DNA from: Kipferlia bialata
Taxonomy: Eukaryota
Assembly: GCA_003568945.1 (NCBI GenBank)
Contig: BDIP01000056.1
Span: forward strand, 1 to 35,686
Direction of reading: 5' to 3'
DNA: 35,686 nt
Below are positions 1 through 29,173 of the stretch, piece after piece; positions within the stretch are counted from its first letter, which is position 1, and every line of letters starts with the position of its first letter. The notes below the pieces were generated by a model that worked only from the letters and a program-made list of their open reading frames with translations, was not told the DNA's origin and did not search any database. Both the position numbers and the translations under genes were made by a program.

Positions 1-54
<54 letters not shown>
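1..54. repeat. (AT)n(AG)n compound microsatellite, representative of dozens in the SOD/ABCA introns
   Basis: Directly visible; similar tracts at e.g. 1175-1208, 2107-2134, 13652-13685, 24083-24108 and 26047-26087. Confidence 0.98.
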
Positions 55-789
55 GCCTTCAAGACCAAGATGGTCAACGGAGGTAATGCCGGGTAGATAT
101 ATATATGTGTGTATATATATATACATAGAGAGAGAGAGAGAGATGGTCAACGGAGGTATGGCCGGGTAGATATATTGAGTATGCCGAGTATTCCCCTCCC
201 CACCCTCTCTCTTTCTCTCTCTACATGTCTTTCCCCTTCCCCCCCTCACCCCTTAGGCCTTGGTGTCTTTGGCTCCGGCTGGGTCTGGCTCATCAAGAAC
301 AAGGACGGCCAGCTCGAGGTCGTGACCACCATGGCCCAGGTATGCATCTCTCTCTCTCTCTCTCTCTCCGACTTGTTATATGATATTATATGTATGTATA
401 CCCTTGTTGGTCGTGACCACCATGGCCCGGGTATGCATCTCTCTCTCTCTCTCTCCCTCCAATATATCCCTATAGTAATGATTGGGATTCTTTGGCTGTT
501 CTCTCTTTCTCTCTCTATCTGCACCCTTATTGTCAGGACAGGCCCCAGGGCACTCTCCTCCTCGCCCTCGATGTGTGGGAGCACGCCTACTACCTCGACT
601 ACGAGAACAGGAGGGCCGGCTTCCTCGAGGTATATATCTCCCTCCCCCCCTCTCTCTCTCTCTCTCTCAGATTCCTAGTAATGTGTCTCACTTTAGTCTA
701 ATACTTCTTTTACATTCATACTATATATTGACCCCTAGGCCATCTGGGGCAAGATCAACTGGGAGAACGTGGCCAAGCGCAACGAGTAA
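55..789 (+). CDS. SOD: Fe/Mn superoxide dismutase, C-terminal part (5' end outside window). Exons ~55-82, 257-339, 537-629, 739-789
   Basis: GT-AG spliced translation [84 protein letters not shown]. Contains the FGSGW and DVWEHAYY signatures. Segment 55-82 follows an (AG)n tract and could itself be an echo copy. Confidence 0.95.
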
Positions 790-1095
790 GCACCCGGCTG
801 CCACACCTAAGTGATGATTGCTATACACTACCCAGTCGGGACGCCGGCTGATACAGTGTGTGTGTCCAATGCGTGTTTTAGTTTTGAATGGCCATTCTTT
901 TCCTTAGAGTCAGAACACAAATAGATACAGCAATCTCTCTTCTGTGTGTTTGTGCTTTACTTTTTGTGGTCTATTGTTACAGTAATTATAGGTAAACGTA
1001 TGGGTCCATACAATAAACCTATCATTAACTCTCCAGTCTATTTTGTTGCAGGGAGTAGAGTGGACTCTGACTACTCTCTCTCCCTCTCTCTCCTA

Positions 1096-1208: not shown

Positions 1209-2102
1209 GTACTGGCCTCATCCTCGAGTGGCCTGGGAGTGAGATGAGTACATTTATGTATACAGAGAGAGAGAGAGGGAGACAATACCTTCTCCCTGCC
1301 CTCCCTCTGTGCCGCACTGACACAAGAGAGAACAAGGAGCGGATTAAGTAGATCTAGATAGATATGCCTACACATATATGTACCTGCTCCCTACTCTCCC
1401 TCTGTGCCGCACTGACACAAGAGACCAGTGATAATATATACACTAATGTATGATGTATATACATACCTCCTCCCTGTCCTGCCTCTGCCCCACTCTGACA
1501 CTGAAACATCGGAGTCCTCAACAGTGCCTGGGGAGTGAGAAATAATAGGCATTGGCCATTTTGAACAGAAGACTATTGTTCTACTCCTCTACTTGTCATG
1601 GTAAGTAAACTTAGACAACTGATATACTAGCATTAGTAATACTAATGCAATGATGCTTTCTTTACCTGCGGATGTCTCTTCCACTGCCCCCTCCACCACA
1701 CTGAGGAATGCACCCTCGAGACCAGATATATATATATATATATTCATATATTAACAAATACATATATGTATATAGATACACCCACCTGCTGATGTCATCT
1801 CTACGGCTCCTTCCACCACGTTGAGGAAGGCACCCTCGAGGGATGAGAACACAAGGCCATACTCATGGGCTATGCCCTCACTCTTGAGGGCTATTAGCTC
1901 CTAGGGGATGAGTACAGTGTAAGTATGTGTATATAGATATGAATACAAATATATCTATATNNNNNNNNNNNNNNNNNNNNNNNNNNNNNNNNNNNNNATA
2001 CAAATATATCTATATATCTATATGCAGTGTAATAGTAGAGAGGACAAGGCCACACTCATGGGCTATGCCCTCAGTCTTAAGGGCTATTAACTCCTGTGGT
2101 TA

Positions 2103-2141
<39 letters not shown>

Positions 2142-5100
2142 TTTCTCATAAAATCACATATTATCACGTACCCTCAGCACCTCTGAGACTGTGTGGCCAT
2201 ATATATTGTGCTATATATACATATGTATATAGAGGGGGTATCTATTATATACACGTACCCTCAGGACCTCTGAGACTGTGTGCCCATAGGCCAGGGTGAA
2301 CTGAGAGACAATGCGGCATGGGGTGAGAACAGAGGACTATACATGTATAGATACATACAGATAAGCTACTGAAATAGAACGAAACCATATATATATGCCG
2401 TAGTGAATGGGAGACAATGCGGCCTAAAGTAAGCACAGAAGTGTAGTTCTATACATATATGCTATAGAGGTATGTACTGTGTGGGGTCATATATCATACC
2501 TGACACCGGTGTCTGCTGTAACCAACTATATATATATGGGGGCATACACTAATGTATTATATACCATATCATACTATACCATACTATCCTAATGTATCCT
2601 ATCCCATACCTGACACCGGGGTCTGCTGGGATGCCGTGTTGACAATGTGGCTGTTGACCAGGAAGAGTCTGTCAGTTAGAGGCCAGAGACTTGGGACCCA
2701 GCTCTGATATGAAAACAGAGACCATTTTACCTGTTTTGCACTTGAGTCCCATTGCTGGGTGCGTGTTTGACCGATATCAGATACCCACTGCCATATCTGG
2801 CCTTGAGGTGGAACCTCGATCCAATGGCCTGCATCTGGCCTACAGTCAGTATCGCGTAAGAATTGTGTCTTCGTGTGAATAAGAGGATCCTATATTATTA
2901 TATATAGGCCAATGGCCAATGGCCTGCATCTGGGCCTGGAAGTCAGTATCGCGTAAGATATTGGATTTAAAAGAGGACACTGAATCAGTATCGCGTGAGA
3001 TTTATGTTCGTTGTGGGAATTAGAACCTCTCACCTGCCACCATAACGCCTATCTTCTGGGACAGGGCATCGGCCTCCTCCATCTGGGGGTTAGGCATGGG
3101 TATACACATGTTTACAATATAACTCATATTAGTATACATATATAGAGAGACACGGACAATAGAGTAAGAGAATTGGAGAGTGATAGACGGGGCATCAGCC
3201 TCCTCCATCTGGATGTTAGGTGTTAGTGTACATACGTATACATAGTATCGATTATACTGATGGTCAATATACACAATCCCCTCACGTTGTGTGTTGTCAG
3301 CAGCAGCACCATGTGCTCCTTGGCCTTGTCGATGGTCTACTCTCTCTCTCTCTCTACATATATAGTNNNNNNNNNNNNNNNNNNNNNNNNNNNNNNNNNN
3401 NNNNNNNNNNNNNNNNNNNNNNNNNNNNNNNNNNNNNNNNNNNNNNNNNNNNNNNNNNNNNNNNNNNNNNNNNNNNNNNNNNNNNNNNNNNNNNNNNNNN
3501 NNNNNNNNNNNNNNNNNNNNNNNNNNNNNNNNNNNNNNNNNNNNNNNNNNNNNNNNNNNNNNNNNNNNNNNNNNNNNNNNNNNNNNNNNNNNNNNNNNNN
3601 NNNNNNNNNNNNNNNNNNNNNNNNNNNNNNNNNNNNNNNNNNNNNNNNNNNNNNNNNNNNNNNNNNNNNNNNNNNNNNNNNNNNNNNNNNNNNNNNNNNN
3701 NNNNNNNNNNNNNNNNNNNNNNNNNNNNNNNNNNNNNNNNNNNNNNNNNNNNNNNNNNNNNNNNNNNNNNNNNNNNNNNNNNNNNNNNNNNNNNNNNNNN
3801 NNNNNNNNNNNNNNNNNNNNNNNNNNNNNNNNNNNNNNNNNNNNNNNNNNNNNNNNNNNNNNNNNNNNNNNNNNNNNNNNNNNNNNNNNNNNNNNNNNNN
3901 NNNNNNNNNNNNNNNNNNNNNNNNNNNNNNNNNNNNNNNNNNNNNNNNNNNNNNNNNNNNNNNNNNNNNNNNNNNNNNNNNNNNNNNNNNNNNNNNNNNN
4001 NNNNNNNNNNNNNNNNNNNNNNNNNNNNNNNNNNNNNNNNNNNNNNNNNNNNNNNNNNNNNNNNNNNNNNNNNNNNNNNNNNNNNNNNNNNNNNNNNNNN
4101 NNNNNNNNNNNNNNNNNNNNNNNNNNNNNNNNNNNNNNNNNNNNNNNNNNNNNNNNNNNNNNNNNNNNNNNNNNNNNNNNNNNNNNNNNNNNNNNNNNNN
4201 NNNNNNNNNNNNNNNNNNNNNNNNNNNNNNNNNNNNNNNNNNNNNNNNNNNNNNNNNNNTTGTGTGTAGTGAGTAATAGCACCCTGTGCTCCTTGGCCTT
4301 GTCGATGGTCTACTATATATATATATATACATATAGTATATATATAGTATATACATTGTCTATACTACTCACATTGTGAGTAGTCAACAGTAGCACCCTG
4401 TGCTCCTTGGCCTTGTCGATGGTCTTCCACACACTCCTCCTGGTCATGGGGTCTAGACCGCTGGGGTGTAAGAGAATGACTCCATTGTCTGTATGTGGGA
4501 ACACACATTGTAATGAATACTCATAACATGAACTCACGTTGATGGCTCGTCCAGTATCAGCACCGAAGGTGACCCTATCATGGCTATGCCCAGAGATAGC
4601 CTAAGGGGTAAACTTACATTACTAACTGTGATATGTATACCTATACTGACTATTTCTTCGCAATACAATGATACAGAAGTATATCTATACCTCCTACGCA
4701 TGCCCCCACTGAGTGCGTCTGCCCTTCTGTGTATGGCACACTATATATATATACATGCACACTTACATATATATACTTACACTGAGAGAATTCTTACCGT
4801 CTACGCATCCCTCCACTGAGTGCATCAGCTCTTCTGTCTATGGCCGGACTGAGGTCCAGGAACTTGACCAGACCCTCAACCACAGAGTGCTCCTGATAGA
4901 TGAGAGTATATATAGAACATATATAGAATACATATTATATATGTACTATGTATACAATATATGATCCTATATATATATATTAATATGGAGGAACTTGACC
5001 AGACCCTCCACCACAGAGTGCTCCTATGATAAGAGTACATTTAGAACATATCGTACCGTATACACATATATTGTCTCACAATGTATATGTATGTAATACT

Positions 5101-8100
5101 AATATATTATTACATATACATATATAAGTATAGCTCTTTACACACCATCTTCCGCTGGACCCCTCTGATTCTGCAGAACAGGGAGAAGTGCTGGCGGACA
5201 GTGAGGGAGGGGAAGTAGCTGGGGGGTGAGATGAGGGTCAATGTCAGTATATACAATGAGAGAGACTATACATGAAGAGAGAGAGACACTATTGCACGTA
5301 CACGTCGTGCTGTGGGCAGAGGCCTAGGTGTTTCTGCACACTCCCAGGCCGTCTGGCCACATTGTCACCTGACACAAAGGCTGTGCCTCTGATATGTGAG
5401 ATATAGGAACATATAGAGTATACTCATAGTATTCTGAATATATTTATATATATATGACATCGTATGGCCAGTGGCCATTGGCCACACTGTCACCACTTTG
5501 TGACTTGTACGACCGACACCGCGAAAGATGGATATATCAATTGGGTAGTGTCTGTACCTGGTGGGTGCCGTGAGACCAGTGACTGCTCTGATTGTAGTAG
5601 TCTTGCCTAGGGTGAGGACAAAGGAATATCAACTATCACTGTACACCAAAGCACTCGACACTATGAGAGTATTCAAGGATAGGCCCTAACCTGCTCCGTT
5701 TGGCCCTAACAGTGCCATTGCCGTGTTGTTCTCCACATAGAAGCAGACGTCTCTGACAGCCACAAACCTGGGTTCAGAGGTAGATAATGATCAGCTTATA
5801 CCCTTCCAAAGACTCTCACTGTAACGGAAACACACGTGTAAGTAGTATACAGCAACGGAAAGCATATCAAGGACCTATACCTTGGCGGGTAGTACTTCTG
5901 CAGGTTGGTCACTATCAGCGGGTGCTGGTCTCTGGTGCACAGGGCAACCTCCTTCCTGGGGGTGAGGTTAGTATTGGTTATGGGTATCATACACTGATCA
6001 TACATGTATAGGTATATATATGTGTGTGTGTCTGGTGCACAGGGAGACAGCCTTCCTGGGGTATCAGAGGGGAATATCAGTGATAGTCTATCACTATCTC
6101 TAAACAGCGGTTATCCCTGAGTATCCTAACCTCTCCTCCAACACATCTGTGTCAACAATGCCATACTATATATATATATGTGTATATGTATATGTATATA
6201 TGTACATATACTATGCCTGTACCTCTCCTCCATCANNNNNNNNNNNNTGTATATATGTACATATACTATGCCTGTACCTCTCCTCCATCACATCTGTGTC
6301 AACAATGCAATACTATACATATATCTATATATATATAAGTGTACATATACCTTGCCTGTACCTCTCCTCCATCACATCTCCCTCTAAATATGTATATACG
6401 AGTACATATGTACTCATATATTTACATATATATATATATGAGTGTGTGTGTGTATATATCCCTCACCTCTCTTCCATCACATCTGTGTCCACTTCGTCGT
6501 GTCTCATGACGGTGTCCCTCACATTGTGTCTCCGAGGACGTCTGCAGGGCACTAGTGTCAGACACACATATATATATATATATAGTTAGATGGAATAGAA
6601 CTTAGTCCTCAATTAATAGTATATATATAGAAAGCCTCAGAGAGAGAGAGAGATGCATCAGGAACACTTCTAGTAAATCAGTACCTGGGAGCAGTGGGAT
6701 GGTATGTCATGAATGACTATACTAATATATACATATCGCAGCAGATGGTATGTATATACACACGTATGTATTGGTTTAGATAGTGTTCTGTCGAGTGTAC
6801 CTGGCAGCAGTGGGATGGACAGCCTGATGGCCCTCCCTCTACGGACACCAGTCTTGTCAGCAACACTGGTAGTCACCTAGGTATGAGTAGGGGAGAAGAT
6901 TGTTTGCTGAAAGAGTGCGTCAAAGGAACAATGGATTGTCAGCATAGACCAAAGAGTACCTCTGTGCCCGGGTCAACAGTAGGCAGAGAGGGGACTGGTG
7001 CACCGTACTCAGCTGGAAGCAGGTCGGCAAGCAGTGAGTGGCACAATAGTGATAAGCAACAAGTATAAGTGAATACATGACAGAAGTGTCCATGGTGTGA
7101 CAGATCCAATACCTATGGGTGGCAGGTGGCCCTGAAGAGTAGGGACCTCTAGTACGCCGTCATCTGGAGGTTAGAAGGACCCAAGTACGCAGATTTACAT
7201 ACCACTACTTGTGCTGCACTACGATATATAGATTGACACTTGTTAATACAAAATACATAGTATACATAGTATATGTGTAGAGTACCTTGGTTCTCGTTGG
7301 GCTGTCTGGCCTCTCTCTCCCCCTCTGTCTCTACCCCCTGCACTGACCCCTCCTGGTCCCTCACACTGCTCATCATGGCCAGTGTAAGACCTTCTGAGAC
7401 TGACTGGGGTGGGTATATATACTATACTACCTGTCTCATTGGATGAACACAATGATTAGGTACGAAATAGAGAGTAACAGGAGATTCTTTGAAAAGACAC
7501 AGACTACCTGGTTGACTATAAATGTGATGCTTGTCACAGACAATAGAGACTATAGTACCTGGTTGACTATGAATGTGGGTGTGGCTGACTCAGCGTGTGA
7601 GTCCCCAGTTGCAGTAACATAGGTGACATCAGTCGTGTCCACACTCTCACTCTCCCGCTGCCCACTTGCACTGTCTCGCTCTGTCTCACTCTCGACAGAG
7701 GCTGTGGGAAGTGGCGTAGCGGCAAGGCCTTAGCGTGAGTGCAAGAGTATAGTGTGTGGAGTGGTTACGGTGTATTCACTAATGCAGGAAATTCTCTGTA
7801 TACAGGATGCCTGGTAAGACTGGTACACCACTAGACTACACTTGGTCTCTCTTACCTGCGAACTCCTCCCTCTTCAATGCGGAATTGTCTACCTGGGGGT
7901 GAGACAACACACTGTCATAGAACAGAGCATAAGTGAAACATCAGGCAGAGAGAATAGCCATGCCTTCCCCCCTCTGACCCTATAGTACCTATAGTAATAT
8001 ACTATATATATACTGTAGTAGTAGAGTGTACATATATATAGCTACTTATGTATACAGTCATACCTGCCCTCTGACTGCCATGGCTGTAACACTGGATATA

Positions 8101-11100
8101 GAAGGAGAGACATTTACTACATAGCTATTGTATATATTAGTATATATATATTACTATATAGCCATACCTGCCCCCCTCTGACCGCCATGGCTGTGGGCAG
8201 CATGGACGTCTCCTCAATACTACATGTAGTCTTTAGTAACATGGCAGTATATATATATATATACATCAATAAGAGTAGGTTACACACCTGCCCCCCTCTG
8301 ACTGCCATGGCTGTAGGTAGCATCGATGTCTCCTCATCCTCAGTCTCTACTGGGTTGGGACTTAGCTGCCGTACTAGGGTAAGAAGAGACAGAGACATAA
8401 ATACAGCAGTATCAATGTATGGATATGGGCACACGTACCCGCGTCACCTTCGATAGACATATACAAGCAAAGACAGAAGTGTATACACGTACCCCCATCC
8501 ACGAGTTGAGCACTCCTCACCACCCTCTCTCTCTCTCTCTCATGTGCATAGTCGGTGTCAGCTGGTGACTCCACCATGGCACTAGGACCTGCTGTGTCCT
8601 GGATCACGGCATAGGGCGCTGTCACTATACCCTCTACCCCTATAGTGAGCGTTAGAGTATATATATAGACATATACATTTAGACATTCTGGATCACGGCA
8701 TAGAGCTCAGTCACTAGCGTCTCTGCATCTTCACTTGCAATAAGGACACATCTAGTGTGCTCAAAAGCAATAACAAGTCATAATACACATATACACCGAG
8801 TGTACCTTCTCCCTTCCCTGCCTTCCTCAACCTAAACAGGGGAGAGACAGCAAACCGAACCATCCGGAAGAGGACATCAAGGAGACTAATGATGGGGTAG
8901 AAGACAGAGCGACGGACACCGAGGGTACCCTCGTGATGAGAATATATGAATCCCACGCAGTATAGATACAGAGGGTATATTTGCGGTTGTATTACTGAAA
9001 AATTAGTGTCCCACACACACCTTCTTTGGAATGACTGCATCAAAGTACACGGCAAGCACAAGGTACAGGGCTAAGGTGAGAGAAGACACAATAACGGCAA
9101 GTAATACGGAAAGAGCCCAAAGGATGCAAGACAGTAGTTTTACCCGATACTCACTTCAAACCTTGACTGCCTCTCCTAGCAGTGTGGTATGCTAGTATTG
9201 TACTAGGACTATGTAGTATACACAATATAGATTCTTTGTAATCTAGAATATGTGCCACGTACCTCCGACCTTGACTGCCTCCTCTAAGAGTGGCATCAGG
9301 GGTGACACAAGGAGGGTATCCACATTGTACCCCCTAAAGGTCATCTTGCCAACCAGAGCAACACAGAGCTGGAAATGAGAGAAGGTCAAATAGCGTTGAT
9401 ATATATCACCGTCGTGTAGATAGTACTTAGCAGAGTTCTCACAGCGAATATACCATCATCGTGTAGAAAACGTACCATTGGGGGCACGTATGCGTGCCAG
9501 AGAGTGACAGGGTCATAGACACTGAAGCATATGACAGTAACAATGGCTGTGCAGCTGTAGAAGGCGTTCAGAAGGACACTGGAGACCTGGGGTTAGGGGA
9601 AGACATTACTCACTATATGGTGGGACCAAGGGGAGTATGAGAGGGAGGGTGAGGTACAAGTATGATAAGAGTGTAAAGAGAGGTATATACCTTGGTGTTG
9701 GGTAGGAATGCCGAGGCCAGCATCGAGAAGCACACTATGTTGAAGTAGAGGCTGCCCAGCACGATGGCGAGGGCTCCAAACGACATTCTACGCGGTTAGA
9801 GGGCAATATAGATTTCTATGCGACATTGCTGATATCCAATACCTCGTCATGGCGTCGATACTGAATATGTGGCCAGTCACATAGAGAGCCACGGTCATTG
9901 CGCCACCTGAGGGTGAGACAAACGAGTGACCAATAGCATCCATAGTTTAGAAGCAGAATAGTTGAAAGAGCCACTGAGAGGTGTATGATTCATCACTCAC
10001 ATAAGAGCATGTCGTATGCGGAATTGATTAGAATTACCATTAGAATCAGAGTAAATCCTTCCTTACTATATATATACTACCACTCACATAGTAACATGTC
10101 GTGTGCCAGCAGTACTACATATCTACATACAAAACATATATACTATATGAATTCTCACTTACATAAGAGCATGTCGTATGCCAGGAGTGTCAGCCAGTAC
10201 AGGTGGGCTGGCATCCCCTTGAGCTGCAGGAGGCTGAACAGCTTCAACTCTCTCTCCATGACTTAACGTGAGAAAGAGGGACAGATACACTAAAGTATTG
10301 AACGACATTTGGACAGCTTCAACTCTATCTCAATGACTGGGGTCAAAAGAAGGGACAGATACATACTCTCCACAGCCTCTAAATAGTTGATGATGAGAAT
10401 CTACGCGATACCTGGCTGGAATGCGAGTACAGGCAGCACGCTGAGTATGGCTATGGACACAAAGATGACAGCTGTGAATAGGGCCATGGTCTCTACGAGT
10501 ACACCAAAGGAGTAGTCCCTGGTGTATTGGAAGGGCTGGAAGGAGGCCGTGATGCCTATGGTTAGGAGGTATATATATACAGGTAAGAAATGAGTATTGT
10601 ACATTAGTACATTAGTATACAGAGGCGTGTAGTAGAAGGGTGGGAAGGAGGCAGTAATGCCTGGGGTCAACACACTGGGATATATGTTATAGGAGGCATG
10701 CCAACAGACATATATATATGTATGTATTGAACATACTACTGTACCTGCCGCATCTCGTGTCTGTCCAGTGGCTGACCGAAGGGCTGCACCGCTCAGCTGG
10801 GGGGTGAGATAACGCATAGACAGAAAGGTAGAAGATTTATGGCAAGGAAATGGTAATCTGGAGTTGTGGACACCCCACTGGGCAGAGAGAGTTCTTCATT
10901 GACAAAGATATACCATGCAATTGTCATCCTATACCTTCGCGTGTATGTCATTGACCAGTGACACGTGGGGAGGCAGGGAGAACGGGTTGGAGAACAGACC
11001 TGAGCCTCTGGGGGTGAACGCAAACACGACGACATATGCAATACATTGATAAGTGGGAATCATGATCTCTCCCTTAAGAGTAGCATCAATGAATACCTTG

Positions 11101-13649
11101 GGGCAGCAGGTGGTGCAGGGATTGCCTCATAGGACTTGGCAAAGTAGGCCTCGGGACTGCCTTCCTGAGAGGTCAGACTATGCTACTATACACGTGACGT
11201 ATATGAATATATGTATACATATATATACATATGCAAAGCGTCCTTCTGTTCGTACCTTGATGCCCGTCCAACTCATTCTGAGCTTGAGTCTCATGTAGGG
11301 TAGCACACCTAGGGTAAGAGATGCACAATCACACTCTCGTAACCTCTCCATGAAGGAACAAACACATTGTACTACACTATTGTACATATTGTTCCCATAG
11401 TACATGGAGTATCTATCCATACCCACCTGTCATTGGCGGCATGAATGTCTGCAGGGTTGGCTACACATCCGTATATACTTCTAGTGTACATGATATACAT
11501 ATATATGTGTGAATATATATCCACACCCGTCATGGGCGGCATGAATGTCTGCAGTGTGGGCTGCTGGACTGTGCTCTCAGGGGGGTCATTGAGGTACAGG
11601 GTCATCAGGGGTACACGTGCATAGAGTGTACGGAGAGGGGGGAGGATTGCCTGAAGTAAGGAGCATGGAGAGAGTATCTAAATAGAGGTCACTATCTGTA
11701 TTGGAAGGAGAGATTATACTGTAGAAGATGGTAGTAAGGACCCACCTCTGGCTCCTCGATGTAGTTGGCAGCGGAGGACGCCCAGGTGTACCCTCTCCTA
11801 CGATTAGCACTGGCACAATAGAGACTGTCTTTATATACATGTGGCAAAGTAATATACCTCAGCTGGTACATGATGTAGTTCTCAAATGTCCATGCATCAT
11901 AAGTATGTACTATACAATATATAATATCGAAAGAGTATATACTATATACATAACTGTGGTATCACAACCATATACAATATCCTATATACTACATTCTATA
12001 CATATACCATACCTCAGCTGGTACATGATGTAGTTCTCAAATGTCCATGCATCGTGGTACTGGGGGTGGTCACGGCCTGAGGGTCAGAGGGGTCAAGACT
12101 AAGATCATATGTATCGTGACAGTATTCTCAGAGAAGACCCACTGGTCCACTTCAACATATGTAGTGATTGTAGTGGTACTGGGGGTCGTCACGGCCTGAG
12201 GGTGGGAGGGGTCAGTGGAAACAGCATACATACATAGTATATGTATCACTGGGTGCTCTCCTATTTGAAGAGAGTGAATAGTTTGGGAATATCTTACTGA
12301 GTTCCTACTAGACACTGTATATATAGTATACTTATCTATATATATATACCTACTATTGTGGCAGCTGTGTCTATGTAGTGGTCGTATGTGCTGTTGTTAG
12401 CGTATCTCTCAGCAATGGCAGCCGGGTACTGAGCAACCAGGCCCTTGACACCTGGTGTTGATGAATATGACACTGTAGCTATAGTGATAGTGATGGTAAG
12501 TGCATATGACACTGTAGATATAGTGATAGTGATAGTGATGGTAAGTCCATACGATAGTGATTATGATACACTAGGTATATAGTAATTAATGAATCTCAAG
12601 GGGTATGATACACAATAGGTATACAATAATGTATGAATCTCTTGGGGTATGATAAACAGTATATGATGTGTACCTGGCAGGTATGGGTCTGGCAGAGCAG
12701 CGCTCGTGTAGATGTTGGAGACCTCTCCCTGGAGGTGAGATACATTGGCTGTAGAATACTACAAGGCATGATCTATATATACACTTTCAGGGACAGAATT
12801 ACCTGCAGTAGTGTATACTCCATTGCATTCGGCACGTGTTCTCTCTCATTGGAGTATGTGGGAGCCAGCTATTGTCAGATGTATGCATATCAAACACAAT
12901 CCACCGGGTCGAATAGACTTGTCAATAGGAGCGAGAGTACCTAATATATAAATTCAATGTTACATTGAATCTATGTAAGAGGTTAAACACAGTTGCTAAT
13001 GAGAGGGAGAGAGTACCTGCTTTATGACCAGGGACTCAGACGGTGGCAGAGACCCGTGGTGGGACCTGATGTCAGTGAAGAGACCACAATTTCCTATACA
13101 ATACTGTCCTACAGAAAACACTATTCCCAGTAATGAATGTACTATAGCGGATGATACTATAACACTGATACCTCGTGTCAATGGGTACCCCATTAATGTC
13201 CTGAGGAAGGAGAGCATTCTGGGGTTAGAGACATTTCCGTATATTGGATACCTACAGCAATGAAGATACTCTCACAAGTCTGGTGGATGAATCAAACATG
13301 TAGACTACACTATATGTATACCTCAGCCTCGACCAGCTGTGCCAGTTCCACCCATGGGTCATAAACATCCCTCTCCTCCTGTGTCATGATGGAGACATCA
13401 GACATCTGGGGTCAGTAAGTAAGTATACTGCACACATATATATATATATAGATATATATATGTCAACGTACATCAGGGCCACACCAGACATCTGGTAGGA
13501 GACAGTTAATACATATACACTGAGTAGAAGTCACACAGTGCAGTACAACCAAGATAGTATTGAAAGACAATTATGTGCAAGAGATGTTGGTTATAGAACC
13601 CTGTCGAGAGGGTACCGTGTGTGTATATACTATATATAGTGTATTCTCC

Positions 13650-13685
<36 letters not shown>

Positions 13686-16600
13686 GTATACCTTGTCGAG
13701 TGGGTACCGTGTGTTGTCAAACACAGTCATCGAGACTGGGACACCGTATCTCTTCATACTGGGGTGAGATTGATGTGGATTACAATCTACTGGTATAATA
13801 CTATCTAGTAAAGAATCTAGAGTAGTACTCAGTTGTTTAGAGATGTATACCAGAGTTATACTCACCTTGGGGAGATGTATTATGTATATATATCAGATAG
13901 ACCCACCTAGGTCTCTCTATCGATTACCAATAGTGAATACATATCAAATAGATTGACCCACCTAGGGGAGTTGTCACCAAAGACAGTGGCAGCTTGGTAC
14001 TGGACATTACCTGACTTGTCAGACACAGAGTAAGCAACGCGATACAGTAGGGAGATGCACACTATAGTAGGCACGTGGGAGTATGGTGGTATAGTATGGT
14101 GGTATAGTATGGTGACCCTCACCTTGGTACTGGTCTAGCAGGGTGCAGACATAGGGGTTGCCCAACATGTCATAGCCTGTGCAGGGCTCTGTTGGGTACT
14201 GGAGTCAGTTATAGAGAGCATACTCACTGTCACATACTGTATAGTAGGGCTTACATACCGTTGTATCTGATACATAGTCACTGAGCATGCACAGTTGACA
14301 GGCAGCCTCGGCCTCCTCTATGTAGCCAGCTGGGGTTATTCATTGACACTATAACAAGTATACAGAGAGAGGGAGTCTCTCATACCTACAGGCTCATCAA
14401 CGCTATCCCCAGTTTCACATACATTTTGACATATCATATATATGTGTCTCCCACCTACATACTCATCCACTAAGCCCACCATGAATGGGAACAAATGTGC
14501 CACCATGAGGTATGAGAACATGAAGCAGAGGAAGGGCAGGACAAAGATGCCAAGGAAGCCACAACGACGAGAGCTAAGAGTTAGAAAGAACTTCAAACTC
14601 AAAATAACTCCAAACTTAGAAGAACTTCAATCTTGGAAGTACTCTATACTTAGAAGAACTAACTTAGAAGAGGAAGAAGACTGTTAAGATCATATTCACT
14701 GTGAGTGTCAGTGATGATTACCTGTCCACTGCATACAGCTTGGACATCAGACCCCGTATGTATCTGGGTGTATTCAGTGGCGGGTTGAGCACATCTATCT
14801 GGGGGGTCAGTAGAGAAAGAGCAGGGTCTGCATGCAATGGTGACGACTCAACATTACCTTTGCCTCGCCTTGGGCGCGCTCTCTCTTCCTCCTCGCTCTC
14901 CTGGTGTCAGTGTAGTATTTATGAGTATTCAAACATGATACAGAATGAATGACTGAATATAGTAGATGCGTGTATGATACAGGGATTGACGCACCTACTC
15001 TCCCTCTGAGATATGGTACCCGTGTCAGTACCGTCACCTTCACCAACATAGCTGGGGTTCAGAGCGATTCACATCGGACACTAGAAATAGACTCGAATAG
15101 AGAAGATGTGGTATGCTAAGATTGTATGGGGTTATTGCATCTACCTGCCGGTCTCCGTCTCCTTTTGTGTAGGTGTAGCACCCACAGATGACCCTATCCA
15201 CTCCTCAGAACCCTCGCTGCCACCCCAGGCAAGCACCTCTCTCTGCAGTTAGGACACATACACGCATCGAGTAGTATACATGCTATTCATGACTAACTGG
15301 ATATTAAATTTGGTACCTTCTGTATGGCCCTCCTACTCTCATCTCCGCCCTCCTCTATGTGCATGTTGGCCAGTGATCTCTTATGTGATTCAGCCATGGC
15401 CCTAGAATTATTAGCTGCACGATACGTAAGACTACACGATAATTGGGGATATTGTATTATGAGTATTGAAGTTTACCTGTGGCCGACGTTGATGAACACC
15501 TCCTCCAGGCTGGTCTGGGTATGTCAGAGGGAGAGAGAGGGAAATGGGGCGAGAGAGGGGGAGAGAGGGAGGGGGAATTAGTGGAGAGCTTTCTAACTCA
15601 GGACGCCATATAGTAGGCCTAGTAGACAGAGAGTATGGGTACCTGGGTACACGATATGTCCTCTATGTACTCGAACCCCATCCCCTCTCTGGACTCTAGT
15701 ACACTGAGAAGATCAGGGAGCTTCGACTCTGTATCCTGACACGTCAGGCATAAGTAATGAGCAATCACACAACAGCCCACCGTCGGACAACACGTATATA
15801 GTAACGCAACGTATGAGTAGTAACCCCCACCTGACTGACACTGTATGTCAGGCTCTGCGCACTGTGGTCCAGGAGGGTCAGGGTGTGGGTGGGGGCCTGA
15901 GGTAAGTAGTGGAAGGAAGTAGTGAATAGAAGAGAAAAGTACTAGAATCAAGGTCTGGAATATGGTGTGCTTGGGGGCCTGAGGATATTAGTAGTATACT
16001 GAGAGAGACACATAAGGTTGGAAGCAATGAGAAGATCTTACCTCAGGGTCAGTTGCCAGTGCCTCAGTGAGAGTGCCTGGGGGGTGAGACAACTACAAGC
16101 CTATGACTCAATAGTTCAAGATATGTAGGAGAACATATGTGCTTATATGTCTGTGTATACTAGTGTATACAAGTATTCTAACCTCTGGCACCCTCCCCCT
16201 CCTCCTCCCCCACTGTGGGTGTACCACCCTCTGTGGTATCCATATACTCTATGGACATACTCTCACAGGTCCTGGGGTAAGTATACAACAGACTATACCT
16301 GCAGAAAGCCACTATGCCAAGTACATATATTCACGAAACACAAGTAGTGTGTAAACATGTATATATCAGTACCTTCTGACGGCACTGGCTATCACTGACG
16401 TGTGCGACGCAGAGTCAGCTACCACAGATATCACAAATCCAGTTCCGAACTTTGCCTTGGAGTAAGATTTAGATGTGAGACCAAAGACAGTACATACATA
16501 TGTCATAAAAGTGAAAGGTGAGACCCAAAGACAGGTACCCACTAATAAATAGACATACAATTACACACAAATACTATTCTTTGTTCTTCAGACTGTTGGC

Positions 16601-19600
16601 CCCACCTTGAGGTGCAGCACTGTGCCAAGAGCAGCAATCTGGCCCTGGAAGGTCAGAAGAGAAAGACATGTGTCAAAACGTACCTGAGCAGAGAGTGGAC
16701 TGCACTCCTGTGATGTACCTTGCTCATGATTGCCACCACATCCCCCAGCCTCTCAGCCTCTGGCATGTCATGGCTGGTCAGCATCACAGCGGGAGGGGGG
16801 GCCCACTTCCTAGGGGTTAGTACATATAAATATATGGTATCTTAGTAGTTAGACCCACTAGCGCAAGCGCGTAGTACTCTGGCTTATCGTGTAGCTTATA
16901 CCCGTACCTCCTGAGGTGTCCGTGTCTGCCGTATGTGGGCATCTGCTGCTTCTGTCCTGTGATGGCCTCCACTGCAGTCCACACAGTGTGTCTGGCAATG
17001 GGGTCTAGGCCTTAGGTTAGACTCTAAAATATACACGACATATATGTGGAGAGAGAGAGAGAGTACGAGGTTACAGAGTGTCTGGCAATGGGGTCAAGGC
17101 CTGGGGTGAAAACACTGATTGCTCTCTGACCATAAGCAATTCGTACATATTCATACCCCTCTACATACCTGTGGATGGCTCGTCCAGGAGATTATACTAT
17201 ACACATATATACATAATATCCACTGTAAATCTATCAATACTATATAAATAGTTACCTATACCTGTTGCGGGCTCGTCCAGGATGACCAGTACATATATAT
17301 ATATAGTAGAACTCACATACGTATATAAATATATATATTCATATACATATACACATACCCGTAGAGGGCTCGTCCAGTATGACCAGCTTGGGACACCCGC
17401 TAAAGGCCATGGCTATGCAGAGACGCCTCAGCATACCACCAGAGAACCTAAAGGTAAGATGGGAAACCCTATACATACATACCGGTACGTGTAGTATATA
17501 TGTGAGCATATAGAGGAATATGATGTATGATGTACACGTACTGTCCAGCTGGCTTGTTCTTGACATCGAGTAGGTCCACATAGCCCAGTAGCTCATGGGC
17601 CATGGCCTTGATGCACCTCTTGGGTATGCCTGGAGTGAGGGTGTCAACACATCAGAAACTGCTATTTCATGTTATGATATATATGTGGCATACCCCTAAA
17701 TCGTACATACTCACATGTACTGCATGGGAATATATACACATATATGTATTATTACCATAAACTCATATATATATATATGACATACTAACCCTTGATCATG
17801 CAGACTATCCACATGTGCTGGATGGGTGACAGGGAGGGCCAGATGGTGGTGTTGCCCTGGGGGCATATGCCTAGGGTGCGCCTGGTTGTATAAGAGAGAA
17901 TATCATGAGGTATTAACAATTCACACACTTATGGTCACTATCTATAATAGTACACATACACATCTTATCTGCAGAGGGTGCTATATATATATATATATAT
18001 ATAGTATACCTGATCTGCAGCGGGTGCTTGTTTAGTGCGTGGCCACTGATCCATGCCTTGCCCAGTCTAGAGGAGACGGGGTTGTCAGGCTTCAGAGTGC
18101 CTGGAGTCAGTTGGATACTGTAGAACACTCCTATATATATGAGAACAGCACCCGCTACTCAAGAGTGGACATATGGCGAGATACTCACCTGTGAGCATGT
18201 CTATTGTGGTACTCTTCCCTGCCCCATTGTGACCCAGGAGACAGAAGGTCTGGCCCTGCTTGATCCTGGGATGAGATGCACAATATAGACCAATCATATA
18301 CTTACGTATATAGTATTAAGATAGTGTATATATATGACATATGTATCTAGTGTGTAGGTCTGACCCTGCTTGATCCTGAGGGGTAAGATAGATCTATATA
18401 TAACAATTGTATACAATAGAGAAGTGTGCAGGAGTATATATACATGACAATAGTATCTGAAGTGAAGGTGAGCCCTCCTTGATCCTAAAAGATGAGATAT
18501 ATAGAGATATATAACGGAATAGCAACTCATTTGGATGGAACGACTACAGGACTGTAAGAACTCGGTATAATATCAAAGCTCAGAGCGAAGCACATAATTG
18601 GTACACGAACTCACTCCACCAGGAGTAGACATCTGCTCTGACGATATGTATATGGAATCGTACCTCAGAGTGACTCCATTCACCGCCTTGTTGTACTCTC
18701 TCTTCCCAGACTGGAAGGTCTTATCCAGAGAGTGGGCAACAACCTATCCAGTGAGATACCGGTATTAGTAAAGTGGTATGTGAGCAATCGCTACAATCTG
18801 TAAACTACAATACATATAGTGAGTGTTCACTGTACACTCACCACTGCCTTGTCGAGAGCGGGGTGGGTCAGGACAGACACCATCTCCTGTCTCACATCTG
18901 GGGTGACATGTGTGTATATATATATATACTATTAGTATATATACTCAATGCTATATATATAGGTAGGAATACTAGTATGTGACTCGGGGCAGACACCATC
19001 TCCTGCCTCACATCTGGTGGGTGAGATATATCAATATTAATACATATATATATATAGCCATATATACAGATATGTATATACACAGCCATACTATATATAG
19101 ATATGAATACATATGTAAATAGATGTGGGGGTGAAGGTAGACACCATCTCCTGCCCCACATCTGGGGTCAGACCTATACATAAAATGACATAGGGGGGAT
19201 ATAGTGAAAGTGTGGGTGTGTTAAAGTAGCTCTCTGTGGCGGGTGTAAGATGTACCTGAGTCCAGAGGCTCTAGTCTGTCAGCCGTCCCTGCTGCCTCAT
19301 TGTAGGGGAGAGGGACACGCTTGTGCTTGTCTGCACAATGAGACAAGGAGAGAGATAATTAAGGACATACCCAAAGTCTATAGTGTGTATCAGTATATGA
19401 TAGATGCATAGTCCAATATAGTACTATGATAGCTCAAATGCGTGAGACAAAGATCAGTCATTGCATGATAGTGTTCGTGTATATAGTGCTATCATAGTTC
19501 TGACACTGCATATTGTGCTTGTCTGTATTGAGACAAAGATCAGAAATTGCAGTGGCCATACCCAAGAGGTGTATACAAATATGATATATCTATTGTCCAT

Positions 19601-22600: not shown

Positions 22601-25600
22601 ATACCACCCACCGTCCCATACTCCTCTGGCCAGTAAATCTAGCTCATATTACAGATACTAATACTATCCCCTCCTGCATATATACATATGTCTATAGAGT
22701 GCATAACCCACCGTCCCATACTCCTCTGCCAGTGGGTCAATATTTCAAAGACACACATATAGATATGAGCACATGTGTATGACTATCGATAGGCATGTAT
22801 AGATTTACGTAATGGTACACACTCACCGTGCCGTACTCCTCTGCCAGTGGATCTAGGCCATCCTGCATGTACAGGTAGGCATCGTCTGGGGGTACGGAGG
22901 GAGTACAGATAATTTTGTAAGCTAGTTCCTATTTATCACACAGAGGAAGAGATTATAGAAGGAATGCCATCCTGCATGGATACGTAGACATCGTCTGGGG
23001 GTAAAGAGGGAGGATGAATAATATATCAATTCCAATCACTGAGATAGTGATGCTCAAGTATGAGAGGAGCTAGTGGAAGAGAGTACAAGGAGGGTAACGA
23101 AATAGTGTTGATACACTCAGAGGAAGCAGAAGAGATGATATGCTCCGATACCTAGCACCGTCTGGTTGTAGTGTATGGTGTACTCAACGTTGGAGGGGAG
23201 GGTCTCAAGGTCAGTGAGACCAGCGAAGGAGACACCTGGGGTTAGAGAATATGAGTGTACTGTCTTCTACATATTACTCTAGAGTATGTCAAACATATAC
23301 ACATATATATGTAGTGGGCGAAGGAGACACCTGGGGGGTTATGGTGCCATAACACGAAAACATACGAGACAAATGAATAGGGAAACTAGTAGGTAACTGG
23401 TAACTCACCATATGACCCCTGGGTTATTGAAGACATGACATCATACCGTCAACATCCCCACTAATAGTACATGCAGTATATGGTAGAGTCTATATAGACC
23501 ACCTAGCCATACCTAGCCATATGACGCCTGGGTTGTTGTTTGCGTATCTGTCCAGCTCCCATCCAGAGTCAAACACCATGATGGACTCGTCCTCCCACCC
23601 AAAGTCGGCTAGAGTAAGGAATGTATATATATACTAATACTCAATAGGGTAATACTAATTACACACTATACTATTGTATGAACACCATGATGGACTCGTC
23701 CTCCCAAAGTCGGCTAGAGTAAGAGGAATATAGAGGTATACATATGTACCACTATAAGAGAATTCCAATCTAATACTAAATACACACTACTGTATGGACA
23801 CCATGATGGACTCATCCTCCCACCCAAAGTCAGCTAGAGTAAGAGACAAATATCCGAATACTCACAAGGGTAATACTTAATACACACTGGTCTACAATGG
23901 AATCATCCTCCCAATTTGGGTTACACAGGGAGAGATTAATAACATGCAGGGTCAGCGATGTATACAGTGAGGATAGTAGAAGACACATATGTACCCCACC
24001 TATGACTGCGTCCATTGTCCTGTTGACTGCCAGGTTGATAGCAGGGGCAAATACATATATACATATTCCTATATATATAAATGTGTGTGTGTGTGTGTGT
24101 GTGTGTGTAGACTATACACCAGTCTATAACTGTCTCCGTACCTATCACTGCATCCATTGTTCTGTTGACTGCCAGGTTGTTAGCAGGGGCAAAGGCTAGG
24201 GACACACACCCCGAGTCAGGCTGGGGTACACCCGGACCATGCCTAGAGGGTAAGGCATACATATATATATATATATATATATAGGGATAGAGAGAGAGAG
24301 ACACCCAGAGTCCGGCTGGGGGACACCCGGGCCATACCTGGGTAAGACAACATATGCATATAAGAATAGAGAGAGAGAGTGAAAGAGAGAGACACACACC
24401 CCGAGTCGGGCTGGGGGACGCCCGGGCCATATCTGGATAAGACACTACATACATATATAGATAGGGAGAGTGAGTGAACGAGAGAGAGAGAGACAGCCCG
24501 AGTCCGGCTGGGGGACACCCGGGCCATACCTAGTGGGTAAGGTATACGCACACACATATATATGAATGTATGCATATGTATATATATAGGGAGAGAGAGA
24601 GAGAGAGCGGAGTCAGGCTGGGGGACACCCGGGCCATACCTAGTGGGTAAGGTATACGCACACATATATATATGAATGTATGCATATGTATATATATAGG
24701 GAGAGAGAGAGAGAGAGCAGAGTCAGGCTGGGGGACACCTGGGCCATAACTGGGTTATATGGATGAATAAAGGGTGACGAGAGTATATGCCGAGAGTACC
24801 CACCCGTCACTGCCGTCAAAGACTGCACAGGAGGGGACAGGGGGGACGGCCTTGGCCTAGTGTTAGTACAGATATGTATATATATGTGTATATGTATATA
24901 TATAGATAGATATAGAGAGAGAGAAAGGAAGAGAAGTGGGGATAGCGTTGGTCTCTTGATGTCAAACTATATATAATACATGTAGAACGAGGGAGACAAA
25001 GAGAGTATAGGCCAGTATCGGTAAAGACACGTCGCGTGGTTTTTAAGGAGAGGTTGCACAACGCTGGAACTACACGTAAATACATATATATAGATATATC
25101 ACTCACCACTGGGTGGTTGTTTGGATCCAACGTGGACAATACTATGTTAGGCCACTGCCACAGGACTAGGACAATGGCCATGGGGACTAGGAACCTGGGG
25201 TAAGAGAGATAGATATACCTGTCACTAGGTAGACATGTATATTAATGTGTATATACACACAATTATACGTCAAGTACTAGGGCAATGGCCATGGGGACGA
25301 AATACCTGTATATATAGACATAGTGTATTATATTACTATATATTATTATATATATTTTTTTATATATACACATTGTAGATTAGTAATAATCTATATACTA
25401 GGACAGTGACTGTGGGGAGGAGATACCTCTGGTAAGAGCAAGCGATATACATATAGGTAGAGGTGACATATACCTAGTCACAAACAGCATCGTAGACTCC
25501 TTGACAGCTGACAGGAAATGCAGCATGTACTAATATATATATACAACCATACTATATGTATAGTATATATACTAATATACATATATAGTAGTACAGGACT

Positions 25601-27087: not shown

Positions 27088-28575
27088 ATGGCACCTAGGC
27101 AGCGTGCCCGTATCTACACCCCCCTGGAGACTATACTACAGGAGGGTGTGACGTCACATATCATCAGCAAGCTGAGAGAGGGAGGGGTGCACTCTGTAGA
27201 GCGTATCGCAATGATAACACCTCAGGCTCTGGTGAGAGTGAAGGGAATGAGTGAAAAGCGAGTTGAGGCCATAAGAGAGGCGGCCAAGGAGAGGCTTCAC
27301 ACACACTCCTTCATATCCGGGACAGAGTGTATGGAGAAGGTCGCCAACACATACCATGTGTCCACAGGGTGTGTGGCTGTGGACACGATACTGGGGGGAG
27401 GGATTGAGAGCAGAGGAGTCACTGAGGTGTATGGAGAGTACAGGTGCGTGTTGTCGTGAATCGAACCCCCCCCTCTTCTTTTCACAATAATCACATTCAT
27501 CTCATTCACCCCTCTATATCCCTCTATATCCCTCCATATTGCACCCTACACAATAACCACTTGCCTTTTGTCTCCTTGTGACACATAGGACCGGCAAGAC
27601 CCAGCTGTGTCACACTCTAGCAGTCACTGCACAGATGGGGGAGAACGGAGGGAAGGTTGGTATAAAACATACACATCGCATGTCGTGTATACTTGGAGTA
27701 TTCGTGTCTCTCTTCTTGTATATTCTGTCTAAAGTCTATTTATTACTGATACTCAGGTCATGTATATCGACACCCAGGGCACATTTCGCCCCAAGAGGCT
27801 TGAGCCGATTGCACAGCGCTTTGGCCTCGAGTTTGACAGTGTCCTAGAGAACATCGTCTATGCAAGAGTGTACACTCACACGCACCTGATGGAGATGATA
27901 ACTCCTATGTCAACTGCCATGGCGCAAGAAGAGTAGTCACACTATATACTAAATATCAATATCCCGTTACGTAAGATATGCTCCGCACTTACTAACCCCA
28001 AGGGTCAGGCTAGTCGTGGTGGACTCTGCCACCGCACCCTTCTTCGTTGACCTGCCTGGGAGACGTAATCACTCTGAGCGGGAGGAGGTATTGTTGTCCT
28101 TGGGAATACATATATACTATCACGTAGATGATCAGACGGTATATACTATATAGTATACAGTATATACCTCCTGCCCTGACTATCAGAAGCTTAGCGTGTA
28201 CCTGTCTAGCCTGATGAAGCTGTCCTGTGAGTTCAACGTCCCAGTATTAGTCACCAACCAGGTATACCGACGAAAGAGCAAACAACCCCACCAAAGTTAT
28301 ACGCTTGTAGATGTATTGTCCGCTTATTCTCCCTCTTTCTTGACAGCCAGGTCACAATGGATACCGACAATACATCTGGCCGTTACCGCCAGAACAAGCC
28401 TGTTGGGGAGAACGTCGTCGGACACTCAGTCACTACACGGCTGCGCTTCGGCAGATTCCTTTCGGGCGATTACAGGTGGAGCCGTAGCTGCTGCGTCCTC
28501 CACTCCCCAGGCCTCCCAGAGGAATGTGCAGACTTACAGATATCAGACGGGGGTGTCACTGACATTGACAATTGA
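27088..28575 (+). CDS. DMC1: DMC1/RAD51-family recombinase, divergent and DMC1-like. Exons 27088-27443, 27589-27655, 27757-27932, 28003-28087, 28187-28261, 28351-28575
   Basis: N-terminal HhH region (KLREGG...VKGMSEKRVE), STG...D.ILGGGIES, Walker A GEYRTGKTQLCHTL, YIDTQGTFRP, ARVYTHTHLME, Walker B LVVVDS, KLSCEFNVPVLVTNQV, GHSVTTR, ISDGGVTD. All introns are GT-AG and in phase. DMC1 rather than RAD51 is judged from motif resemblance only. Confidence 0.88.
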
Positions 28576-28806: not shown

Positions 28807-29173
28807 AAGCTGTCCTGTGAGTTCAACATCCCAGTCATAGTCACAAACCAGGTACTGTCATTCAAGTGTATTTTAGGGTAAGACTCTTGTCACAAGAGTA
28901 CCTATAGTTGTTAGATACTTGACATTCAGGTCACAGAGAATACGACTACACAGGTTTTAACGTTGAAGACATGAAGAAGAAGCCTACTGGGGGTATGTTG
29001 TCGGACACTCAGTCACTACACGGGTGAACCTCCGCAAAGGCCCTCCCAACAACATTAGCTCAAGCCGCTGCTGCTTTCTCGTCCACTCCCCAGACCAGCC
29101 AGAAGATGCAGTTGGCTTCCAGTTATCAGACGGGGGTGTCACTGACTACGATGATATAGTCGTCATCCACTAG
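28807..29173 (+). pseudogene. Partial diverged copy of the recombinase 3' end (half of exon 5, intron, exon 6) with frameshifts
   Basis: KLSCEFNIPVIVTNQ|gt at 28807-28851, acceptor at 28929, then frameshifted KKPTGG.VVGHSVTTRVNLRKG...HSPDQPE...LSDGGVTDYDD..H* (TAG 29171-29173). Confidence 0.88.

Follow-up and report, generated by a model that had tools for sequence, protein, structure and literature searches.

Exons of an ABCA transporter gene in Kipferlia bialata, a free-living flagellate, are accompanied by partial copies of themselves (hereafter echoes), and in eight cases the live exon lies nested between a 5' and a 3' echo. We consider it rather probable that the echoes are the dead halves of an older exon, the break in which was patched with a fresh exon together with its splice signals, with TA-rich padding on both sides. 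Behind this reading stand five observations: the assembly shows the nested order, the halves fit together, the spacers have a novel composition, the echoes have decayed and an RNA-like contig uses the nested copy. The window is the whole stretch of DNA analysed, 35,686 nt of contig BDIP01000056.1, and the pattern is described for this one window and essentially for one gene.

Half-exon echoes in the ABCA gene

The gene was modelled with 90 hand-corrected exons in one open frame, to which comparison with the annotated protein (P0002) added two exons and two extensions. The resulting 92-exon model equals P0002 (GIQ79794.1) to residue 2316 and over the last 70 residues, and its product contains both the two membrane domains (ABC2_membrane_3, twice) and the two ATP-binding domains (ABC_tran, twice) expected of an ABCA transporter. 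P0002 is the sole match of the live exon among 1.84 billion representatives, and its 90% cluster has a single member. With the whole protein as query, a paralogue was found, P0003 (GIQ79944.1), 75% identical over 2,328 aligned residues; searches with single exons, among proteins of up to 2,000 residues, returned no match. Two sequencing runs of one sample, X1 and X2, contain this DNA. X1 is possibly the source of the assembly, and X2 is RNA-like by our guess, no listed run being recorded as RNA.

Table 1. Coordinates of the gene, of the case at live exon 1900-1786 and of further cases.
Feature	Position	Strand	Remarks
ABCA transporter gene, 92 exons, one open frame, 2,412 codons	25942-1096	minus	annotated as GIQ79794.1 (g493.t1)
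Live exon, 115 nt	1900-1786	minus	spliced to the upstream exon in an X2 contig
5' half-copy (upstream echo), codons 1-19	2093-2037	minus	4 silent and 3 replacement codons relative to the live exon; no donor at its end
Putative branch-point-like motif and AG acceptor of the 5' echo, ctaaccacag	2103-2094	minus	read from the sequence
TA-rich spacer 1	2036-1901	minus	ends in the live acceptor; contains N gap 1961-1997
TA-rich spacer 2	1785-1727	minus	starts at the live donor gtgggt and lacks a terminal AG
3' half-copy (downstream echo), codons 19-38	1726-1666	minus	secure from 1720; followed by donor gtaaag
Abutting case, exon 2317-2259	5' echo 2423-2393; 3' echo 2201-2172	minus	overlap TAT; acceptor cat
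Cleanest abutting case, exon 12076-12013	5' echo 12195-12173 (bases 1-23); 3' echo 11898-11858 (bases 24-64)	minus	overlap 0
Abutting case, exon 22885-22827	5' echo 22994-22966 (bases 1-29); locus 22994-22612	minus	
Array of five 5' echoes, exon 24242-24142	24749-24293	minus	mutual differences mostly at third codon positions

A uniform search with a score threshold of at least 28, reached by 0.3% of control alignments, detects 64 echoes at 38 of the 92 exons. Their polarity is strict: 30 of 32 upstream echoes begin at the 5' end of the exon and 31 of 32 downstream echoes reach its 3' end, while none of the 64 is full length, so that no complete second copy with both splice sites exists. One of the three exceptions to polarity is an internal echo (21051-21029, bases 81-103 of exon 21207-21085) that has neither splice site. 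Exon 22885-22827 has two 3' echoes, one beginning with base 33 (at 22738) and the other with base 30 (at 22642). Echoes are probably undercounted, since the N gaps 3367-4259 and 6236-6247 lie within the 3'-echo arrays of exons 4460-4373 and 6551-6467. Nor is the pattern confined to the ABCA gene, as the 3' part (Sod_Fe_C) of a neighboring Fe/Mn superoxide dismutase gene (1-790, plus strand) has 3' echoes of its own, at about 68-96/141-169 and 318-346/409-437.

Several features of the window stand beside this pattern. Exon 2317-2259 is absent from the public annotation, and the same segment occurs in P0003. Its acceptor (2320-2318, minus strand) reads cat instead of AG, and an X2 contig uses the exon's 3' end. 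The cat may be due to assembly error or to mutation, or may be rescued through the 5' echo; a rescue route would run through the 5' echo (2423-2386), then a GT, then the AG at 2301, with the frame kept. Within 25625-25468 (minus strand), exon 2 has a live donor, gtctat, that seems weaker than that of its 3' echo, gtatat. Outside the ABCA gene, 28217-28563 and 28807-29146 are diverged tandem duplicates, the period being about 590 nt.

The case at live exon 1900-1786 had been described in an earlier note as three pieces, and all of them are present on the minus strand. This layout stands, with two of the starts shifted by one base (1900 instead of 1899 for the live exon, 2093 instead of 2094 for the upstream echo). 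The echoes do have splice signals of their own, the acceptor ctaaccacag upstream and the donor gtaaag downstream, and the exon rebuilt from them is indeed stop-free and of equal length (57 + 61 - 3 = 115 nt, 38 codons, with TCT counted once). The reported 7 silent and 2 replacement codons over 1720-1666 are an exact count; taken whole, the rebuilt exon differs from the live one at 11 silent and 6 replacement codons among 38. These two echoes are not chance matches: they align with scores of 92 and 70, whereas 7,656 control alignments of exons with distant introns never exceeded 34.

The nature of the TCT overlap is a separate matter. The six bases 1726-1721 come after a TA run, secure homology of the 3' echo beginning at 1720, and codon 20 of this echo matches the live codon at none of its three bases and encodes a residue also unlike the paralogue's. 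The overlap could therefore be filler, which would leave a 3-nt gap in its place; it may be chance. As a conserved signal TCT has to be abandoned: the other abutting cases overlap by TAT, 0 and 0 bases.

Fit of the halves and origin of the spacers

If an insert broke up a formerly contiguous exon, its halves should abut or lack only a few bases, and the fit is significant under most rules of counting, though not all. Among the eight two-sided exons of this single gene, overlaps assigned by hand are 3, 3, 0, 0, -7, -13, -33 and -46. Four of the eight thus abut, where three nulls predict 0.5, 1.4 and 0.7 (p 0.0002, 0.015 and 0.002). With automatic ends and the nearest echoes, five of eight meet within 4 nt (p 1e-5), and three of six do so without exons 1900 and 2317 (p 0.003), the presumed two cases of the earlier note, both at the gene's 3' end. 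Under the outermost-echo rule three of eight abut (p 0.008), and significance is lost when the same two exons are dropped (1 of 6, p 0.33). Hand-assigned ends show no large overlap (0 of 8), an absence without significance under the length null (p 0.25); with automatic ends, one overlap of 16 appears under the outermost rule, due to extension into filler. The gaps of the remaining cases, 7 to 46 nt, are such as trimming would leave. The earlier proposal that the two echoes are halves of one split former exon is thus borne out by three more abutting cases (2317, 12076 and 22885) and by the permutation tests.

The main rival, which we regard as fairly unlikely, holds that the echoes are independent small duplications with filler, each carrying a splice signal and part of an exon, and that their ends meet at a fragile spot or by chance. 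In its favor, 28 exons have one half only; a 5' half occurs at 22 and a 3' half at 22 of 88 exons, and their co-occurrence at eight is not above independence (p 0.13). Ends within arrays also often coincide, and the outermost-echo result depends on the two cases named above. Against this, chance falls short of the four abutting exons under each null, and the young case at 12076, the 3' echo of which is identical to its exon at 41 of 41 bases, abuts to the base. Independent events would moreover require a recurrent break site, and none was identified.

The spacers between echo and live exon differ in composition from the introns in which they lie. Their A+T content is 0.72 and their fraction of TA/AT steps 0.42 (n=64). 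The corresponding values are 0.60 and 0.22 for the outer portions of these introns (n=37) and, for introns free of echoes (n=54), 0.62 and 0.24; p does not exceed 2e-8. They measure 21-108 nt, splice signals excluded, and are equally TA-rich at the splice end and at the broken end. Fold-back repeats in the spacers exceed those of shuffled sequences by 2.2 nt (p 1e-5), with no such excess in echo-free introns; this may simply reflect long TA runs. The spacers form no sequence family that would mark a mobile element, as their 25 most shared 10-mers are only variants of TA and CT runs.

Plain tandem duplication would copy the adjoining intron. Here, 18 of 59 flanks score above the 5% null against the outer intron, mostly via TA runs, flanks are unrelated even beside identical exon copies, and flank similarity does not track exon similarity (p 0.4-0.5). 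The distinct composition, together with the lack of alignment to the outer intron, indicates that the spacers are new TA-rich DNA and not copied intron.

Decay, silent differences and the weaker alternatives

The echo halves look dead. Their inner ends lack GT or AG, stops and frameshifts occur across the set, and an RNA-like contig is joined at the live acceptor. Six of eight indels in the coding parts of echoes shift the frame, among them a 1-nt deletion in the 5' echo at 2423, and 3 of 62 changed echo codons are stops. The amino-acid replacements likewise behave as decay: compared with P0003, 47 differences are private to the echo and 4 are positions where the echo agrees with the paralogue, and replacements strike conserved and variable residues of the paralogue alike (47 of 284 and 17 of 80; p 0.32). 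By BLOSUM62, echo replacements are not milder than random (p 0.14).

Silent differences, in contrast, are far too many for a dead copy. Echo and live exon differ at 151 of 468 silent and 105 of 1,526 replacement sites, a pN/pS of 0.21 (0.15-0.30 in a bootstrap over exons); the density of silent differences is 4.7 times that of replacements, and a dead copy should show about 2. Dead copies simulated beside a live copy and passed through the same detector give a pN/pS of 0.47-0.53, the lowest value in 180 runs being 0.37. The same excess appears when one echo is taken per exon side (101 silent, 68 replacement; p 5e-9). Echoes compared with one another differ by 21 silent and 23 replacement changes (p 0.0002 against neutrality), which alone is compatible with the dead-copy model. 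The break-patch model by itself leaves this excess unexplained.

A diverged allele, acting either as the repair template or as a later recombination partner, is the source we favor, standing about level with rapid change in the live exon. The latter combines the break-patch layout with fast silent change in the live exon, by selection to keep it distinguishable from the echo near the splice site or by repeated mutagenic repair, and as a complete account it appears unlikely. It gains weight from a gradient, silent differences occupying 93 of 232 sites next to the splice site and fewer, 58 of 236, next to the break, with no such gradient among replacements (46 of 746 and 59 of 780), a comparison biased by the end-trimming of local alignments and by the non-independence of echoes within one array. 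It also gains weight from composition, G or C being more often in the live copy at silent sites (60 versus 37, p 0.025) and not at replacement sites (36 versus 35). The reduced spliceosome, 87 of 174 proteins according to the available part of PMC6679479, fits as well. On the other side, live silent sites must change several times faster than the adjacent dead copy, and a single error-prone copying would not suffice for the 115-nt exon, in which about 85 replacement sites would have had to escape an error rate near 0.3.

Read records bear on the nested order itself, which is read from the assembly and is covered by reads at the focal case on the 1872-2104 side only, within 1400-2104; the other abutting cases are known from assembly letters. 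X1 contains 0.99 of 1,056 words sampled from 9000-18900. Its record 6 covers 2023-2104 and its record 2 covers 1998-2052 and 1906-1942, both with no differing letters, and record 2, a DNA contig, bridges the N gap 1961-1997 with 37 letters on its short side. The 5' junction is thereby linked through overlapping contigs rather than by one spanning record, and the echo-spacer and splice junctions have fewer than 31 letters on one side. The same 18 bases flank the gap on both sides, so that it closes by an 18-nt overlap, and a third X1 record runs from the spacer end back to the echo end (depths 403, 827 and 494). From these overlaps and depths, the gap probably hides a further, collapsed unit of echo end plus spacer of about 123 nt, which perhaps arose by unequal exchange between echo and live exon. 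In X2, record 8 contains 1872-1901 and continues with 28 letters identical to the last bases of exon 2317-2259 as they stand in the nested copy rather than in the echo; the live acceptor of exon 1900-1786 is thus spliced to that exon. Over 1872-1935, an unspliced X2 contig has a depth of 7.1 against 9.9 for the spliced one, as retained introns, pre-mRNA or DNA would give.

It is very improbable that the assembly created the nesting by fusing two haplotypes or paralogues into a chimera at TA repeats. The assembly is built from short reads, the focal case contains an N gap and probably a collapsed repeat, and the species is reported as diploid in the available text of PMC5874029. Against a chimera, the junctions lie in coding sequence without a long shared word, a separate set of contigs chains echo, spacer and live acceptor without other letters at depths of 1:2:1, X1 (possibly the source data) holds nearly all of the sampled words, and strict polarity at 61 of 64 echoes is not expected.

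Even less credible is the reading of the halves as a second, selected version of the exon, used when excision at a short repeat, in RNA or DNA, takes out the nested piece. In its favor, the rebuilt exon is open and of equal length, and there is a silent excess between echo and live exon as between echoes. Yet the 310-nt piece between the focal halves is not bounded by GT..AG, nor is pairing predicted between its termini, as holds for all four inserts examined; the overlaps (3, 3, 0, 0) differ in sequence, and the insert ends share no conserved motif. The alternative exon proposed in the earlier note is also left unsupported: in the small part of the region that has cover, one X2 contig joins the upstream exon to the live acceptor, indels shift the frame (at 2423 within a 5' half), several echoes contain stops, and replacements spare conserved residues no more than variable ones.

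The least plausible source of the echoes or inserted copies is a close paralogue. P0003 exists, and residue 35 is E in both the focal 3' echo and P0003 and M in the live exon. Across the 80 codons where live exon and P0003 differ, however, the echo follows the live exon at 63, the paralogue at 4 and a third residue at 13, which contradicts P0003 as the source; echoes also occur in the superoxide dismutase gene, and the 90% cluster of P0002 holds one member. Three further candidates were rejected: indirect selection on echoes via gene conversion, which if frequent would erase silent differences, and long-lived full duplicates truncated later, given 0 of 64 at full length, both by argument only; and simple tandem duplication of the exon-intron junction, which fits neither the spacers nor the pN/pS of 0.21 against 0.47-0.53.

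A proposed break repair, known systems and intron history

For the break-patch reading, the following course can be proposed. A double-strand break would occur inside an exon, and the broken ends would be extended with TA-rich filler by Pol theta-type end joining, in a cell without Ku. An intact template would then supply a copy of the whole exon with both splice signals, which would be joined in. Only products restoring one complete, spliceable exon would survive, and such survival would account for both the polarity and the absence of full duplicates. Where such an event was one-ended, a lone 5' or 3' echo would result. With no second full copy of the exon in the window, the template would have been a sister or homologue; if it was a diverged allele, or if echo or live copies later recombined with one, the silent excess would follow. 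The enzymatic background is in keeping with this course, as K. bialata has PolQ (g1038.t1) and lacks Ku70, and loss of NHEJ occurs in metamonads, according to the available parts of PMC8516963 (including its Supplementary Data 2).

The closest described process is repair-mediated duplication by SDSA (Pace et al. 2009, PMC2671141), in which, in the available text, about 150 bp of nearby sequence is captured at a break and interrupts the target, with microhomology, small deletions and filler at the junctions (1-68 nt there; overlaps of 0-3 nt and TA-rich spacers here). Unlike that process as presented there, in which donor and acceptor are separate and about 1.2 kb apart and copied exons are without constraint, the captured piece here is the broken exon itself and becomes the working copy, filler of 20-110 nt lies on both sides, and 38 of 92 exons are affected. 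Since the window contains no separate intact donor nearby on the chromosome, that is, no second full copy, the pattern is not filed as repair-mediated duplication proper; nor is it filed as simple tandem duplication, the spacers being new and pN/pS too low.

Synthesis-dependent MMEJ, or Pol theta end joining (Yu and McVey 2010, PMC2943611), is similarly Ku-independent and yields local insertions with blunt junctions or 0-3 nt of microhomology. In the available account, its insertions are short and copied accurately from the flanks, whereas the spacers here are long and of low complexity and have no match in the flanks. Intron gain by tandem duplication or break filler, as described in the available parts of PMC2891723 and PMC3296678, resembles the present pattern in placing duplicated exon sequence inside an intron and in turning filler into intron. 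Here no new intron position arises: an intron already present grows longer, and half of the old exon remains as a fossil with its outer splice site. The 37-bp repeat across the exon-intron border of human F7 IVS7 (available part of PMC1557585) also places donor copies downstream of the used donor. Unlike the echoes, it is a head-to-tail minisatellite without filler, acceptor-side copies or complementary halves.

As to Kipferlia itself, the available text of the genome paper (PMC5874029) contains the string ‘duplicat’ 0 times, and its overview section does not mention such copies. Searches of an open-access library, judged by title and opening of the abstract, returned no account of the pattern in Kipferlia, nor of complementary exon halves around a replacement exon.

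A more far-reaching version of the break-patch reading is possible but doubtful: exons may be renewed in place from strongly diverged alleles with TA-rich padding, so that introns would be layered archives of former alleles and the genome would record a population silent diversity near 0.3. For gene predictors, the echoes are a warning, as they place dozens of decoy splice sites in one gene. If the pattern is genome-wide, the genome would densely record, under natural conditions, how breaks are repaired in a eukaryote that lacks classical end joining, and introns there would grow and renew their splice signals while their position is unchanged. Such a pattern would also pose a puzzle for the neutral theory of dead copies, since the fossils differ from the live exons as working alleles do. 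The question bears on all 124,912 introns of K. bialata (a count given in the available text of PMC5874029), which may be ancestral-looking or constantly rebuilt.
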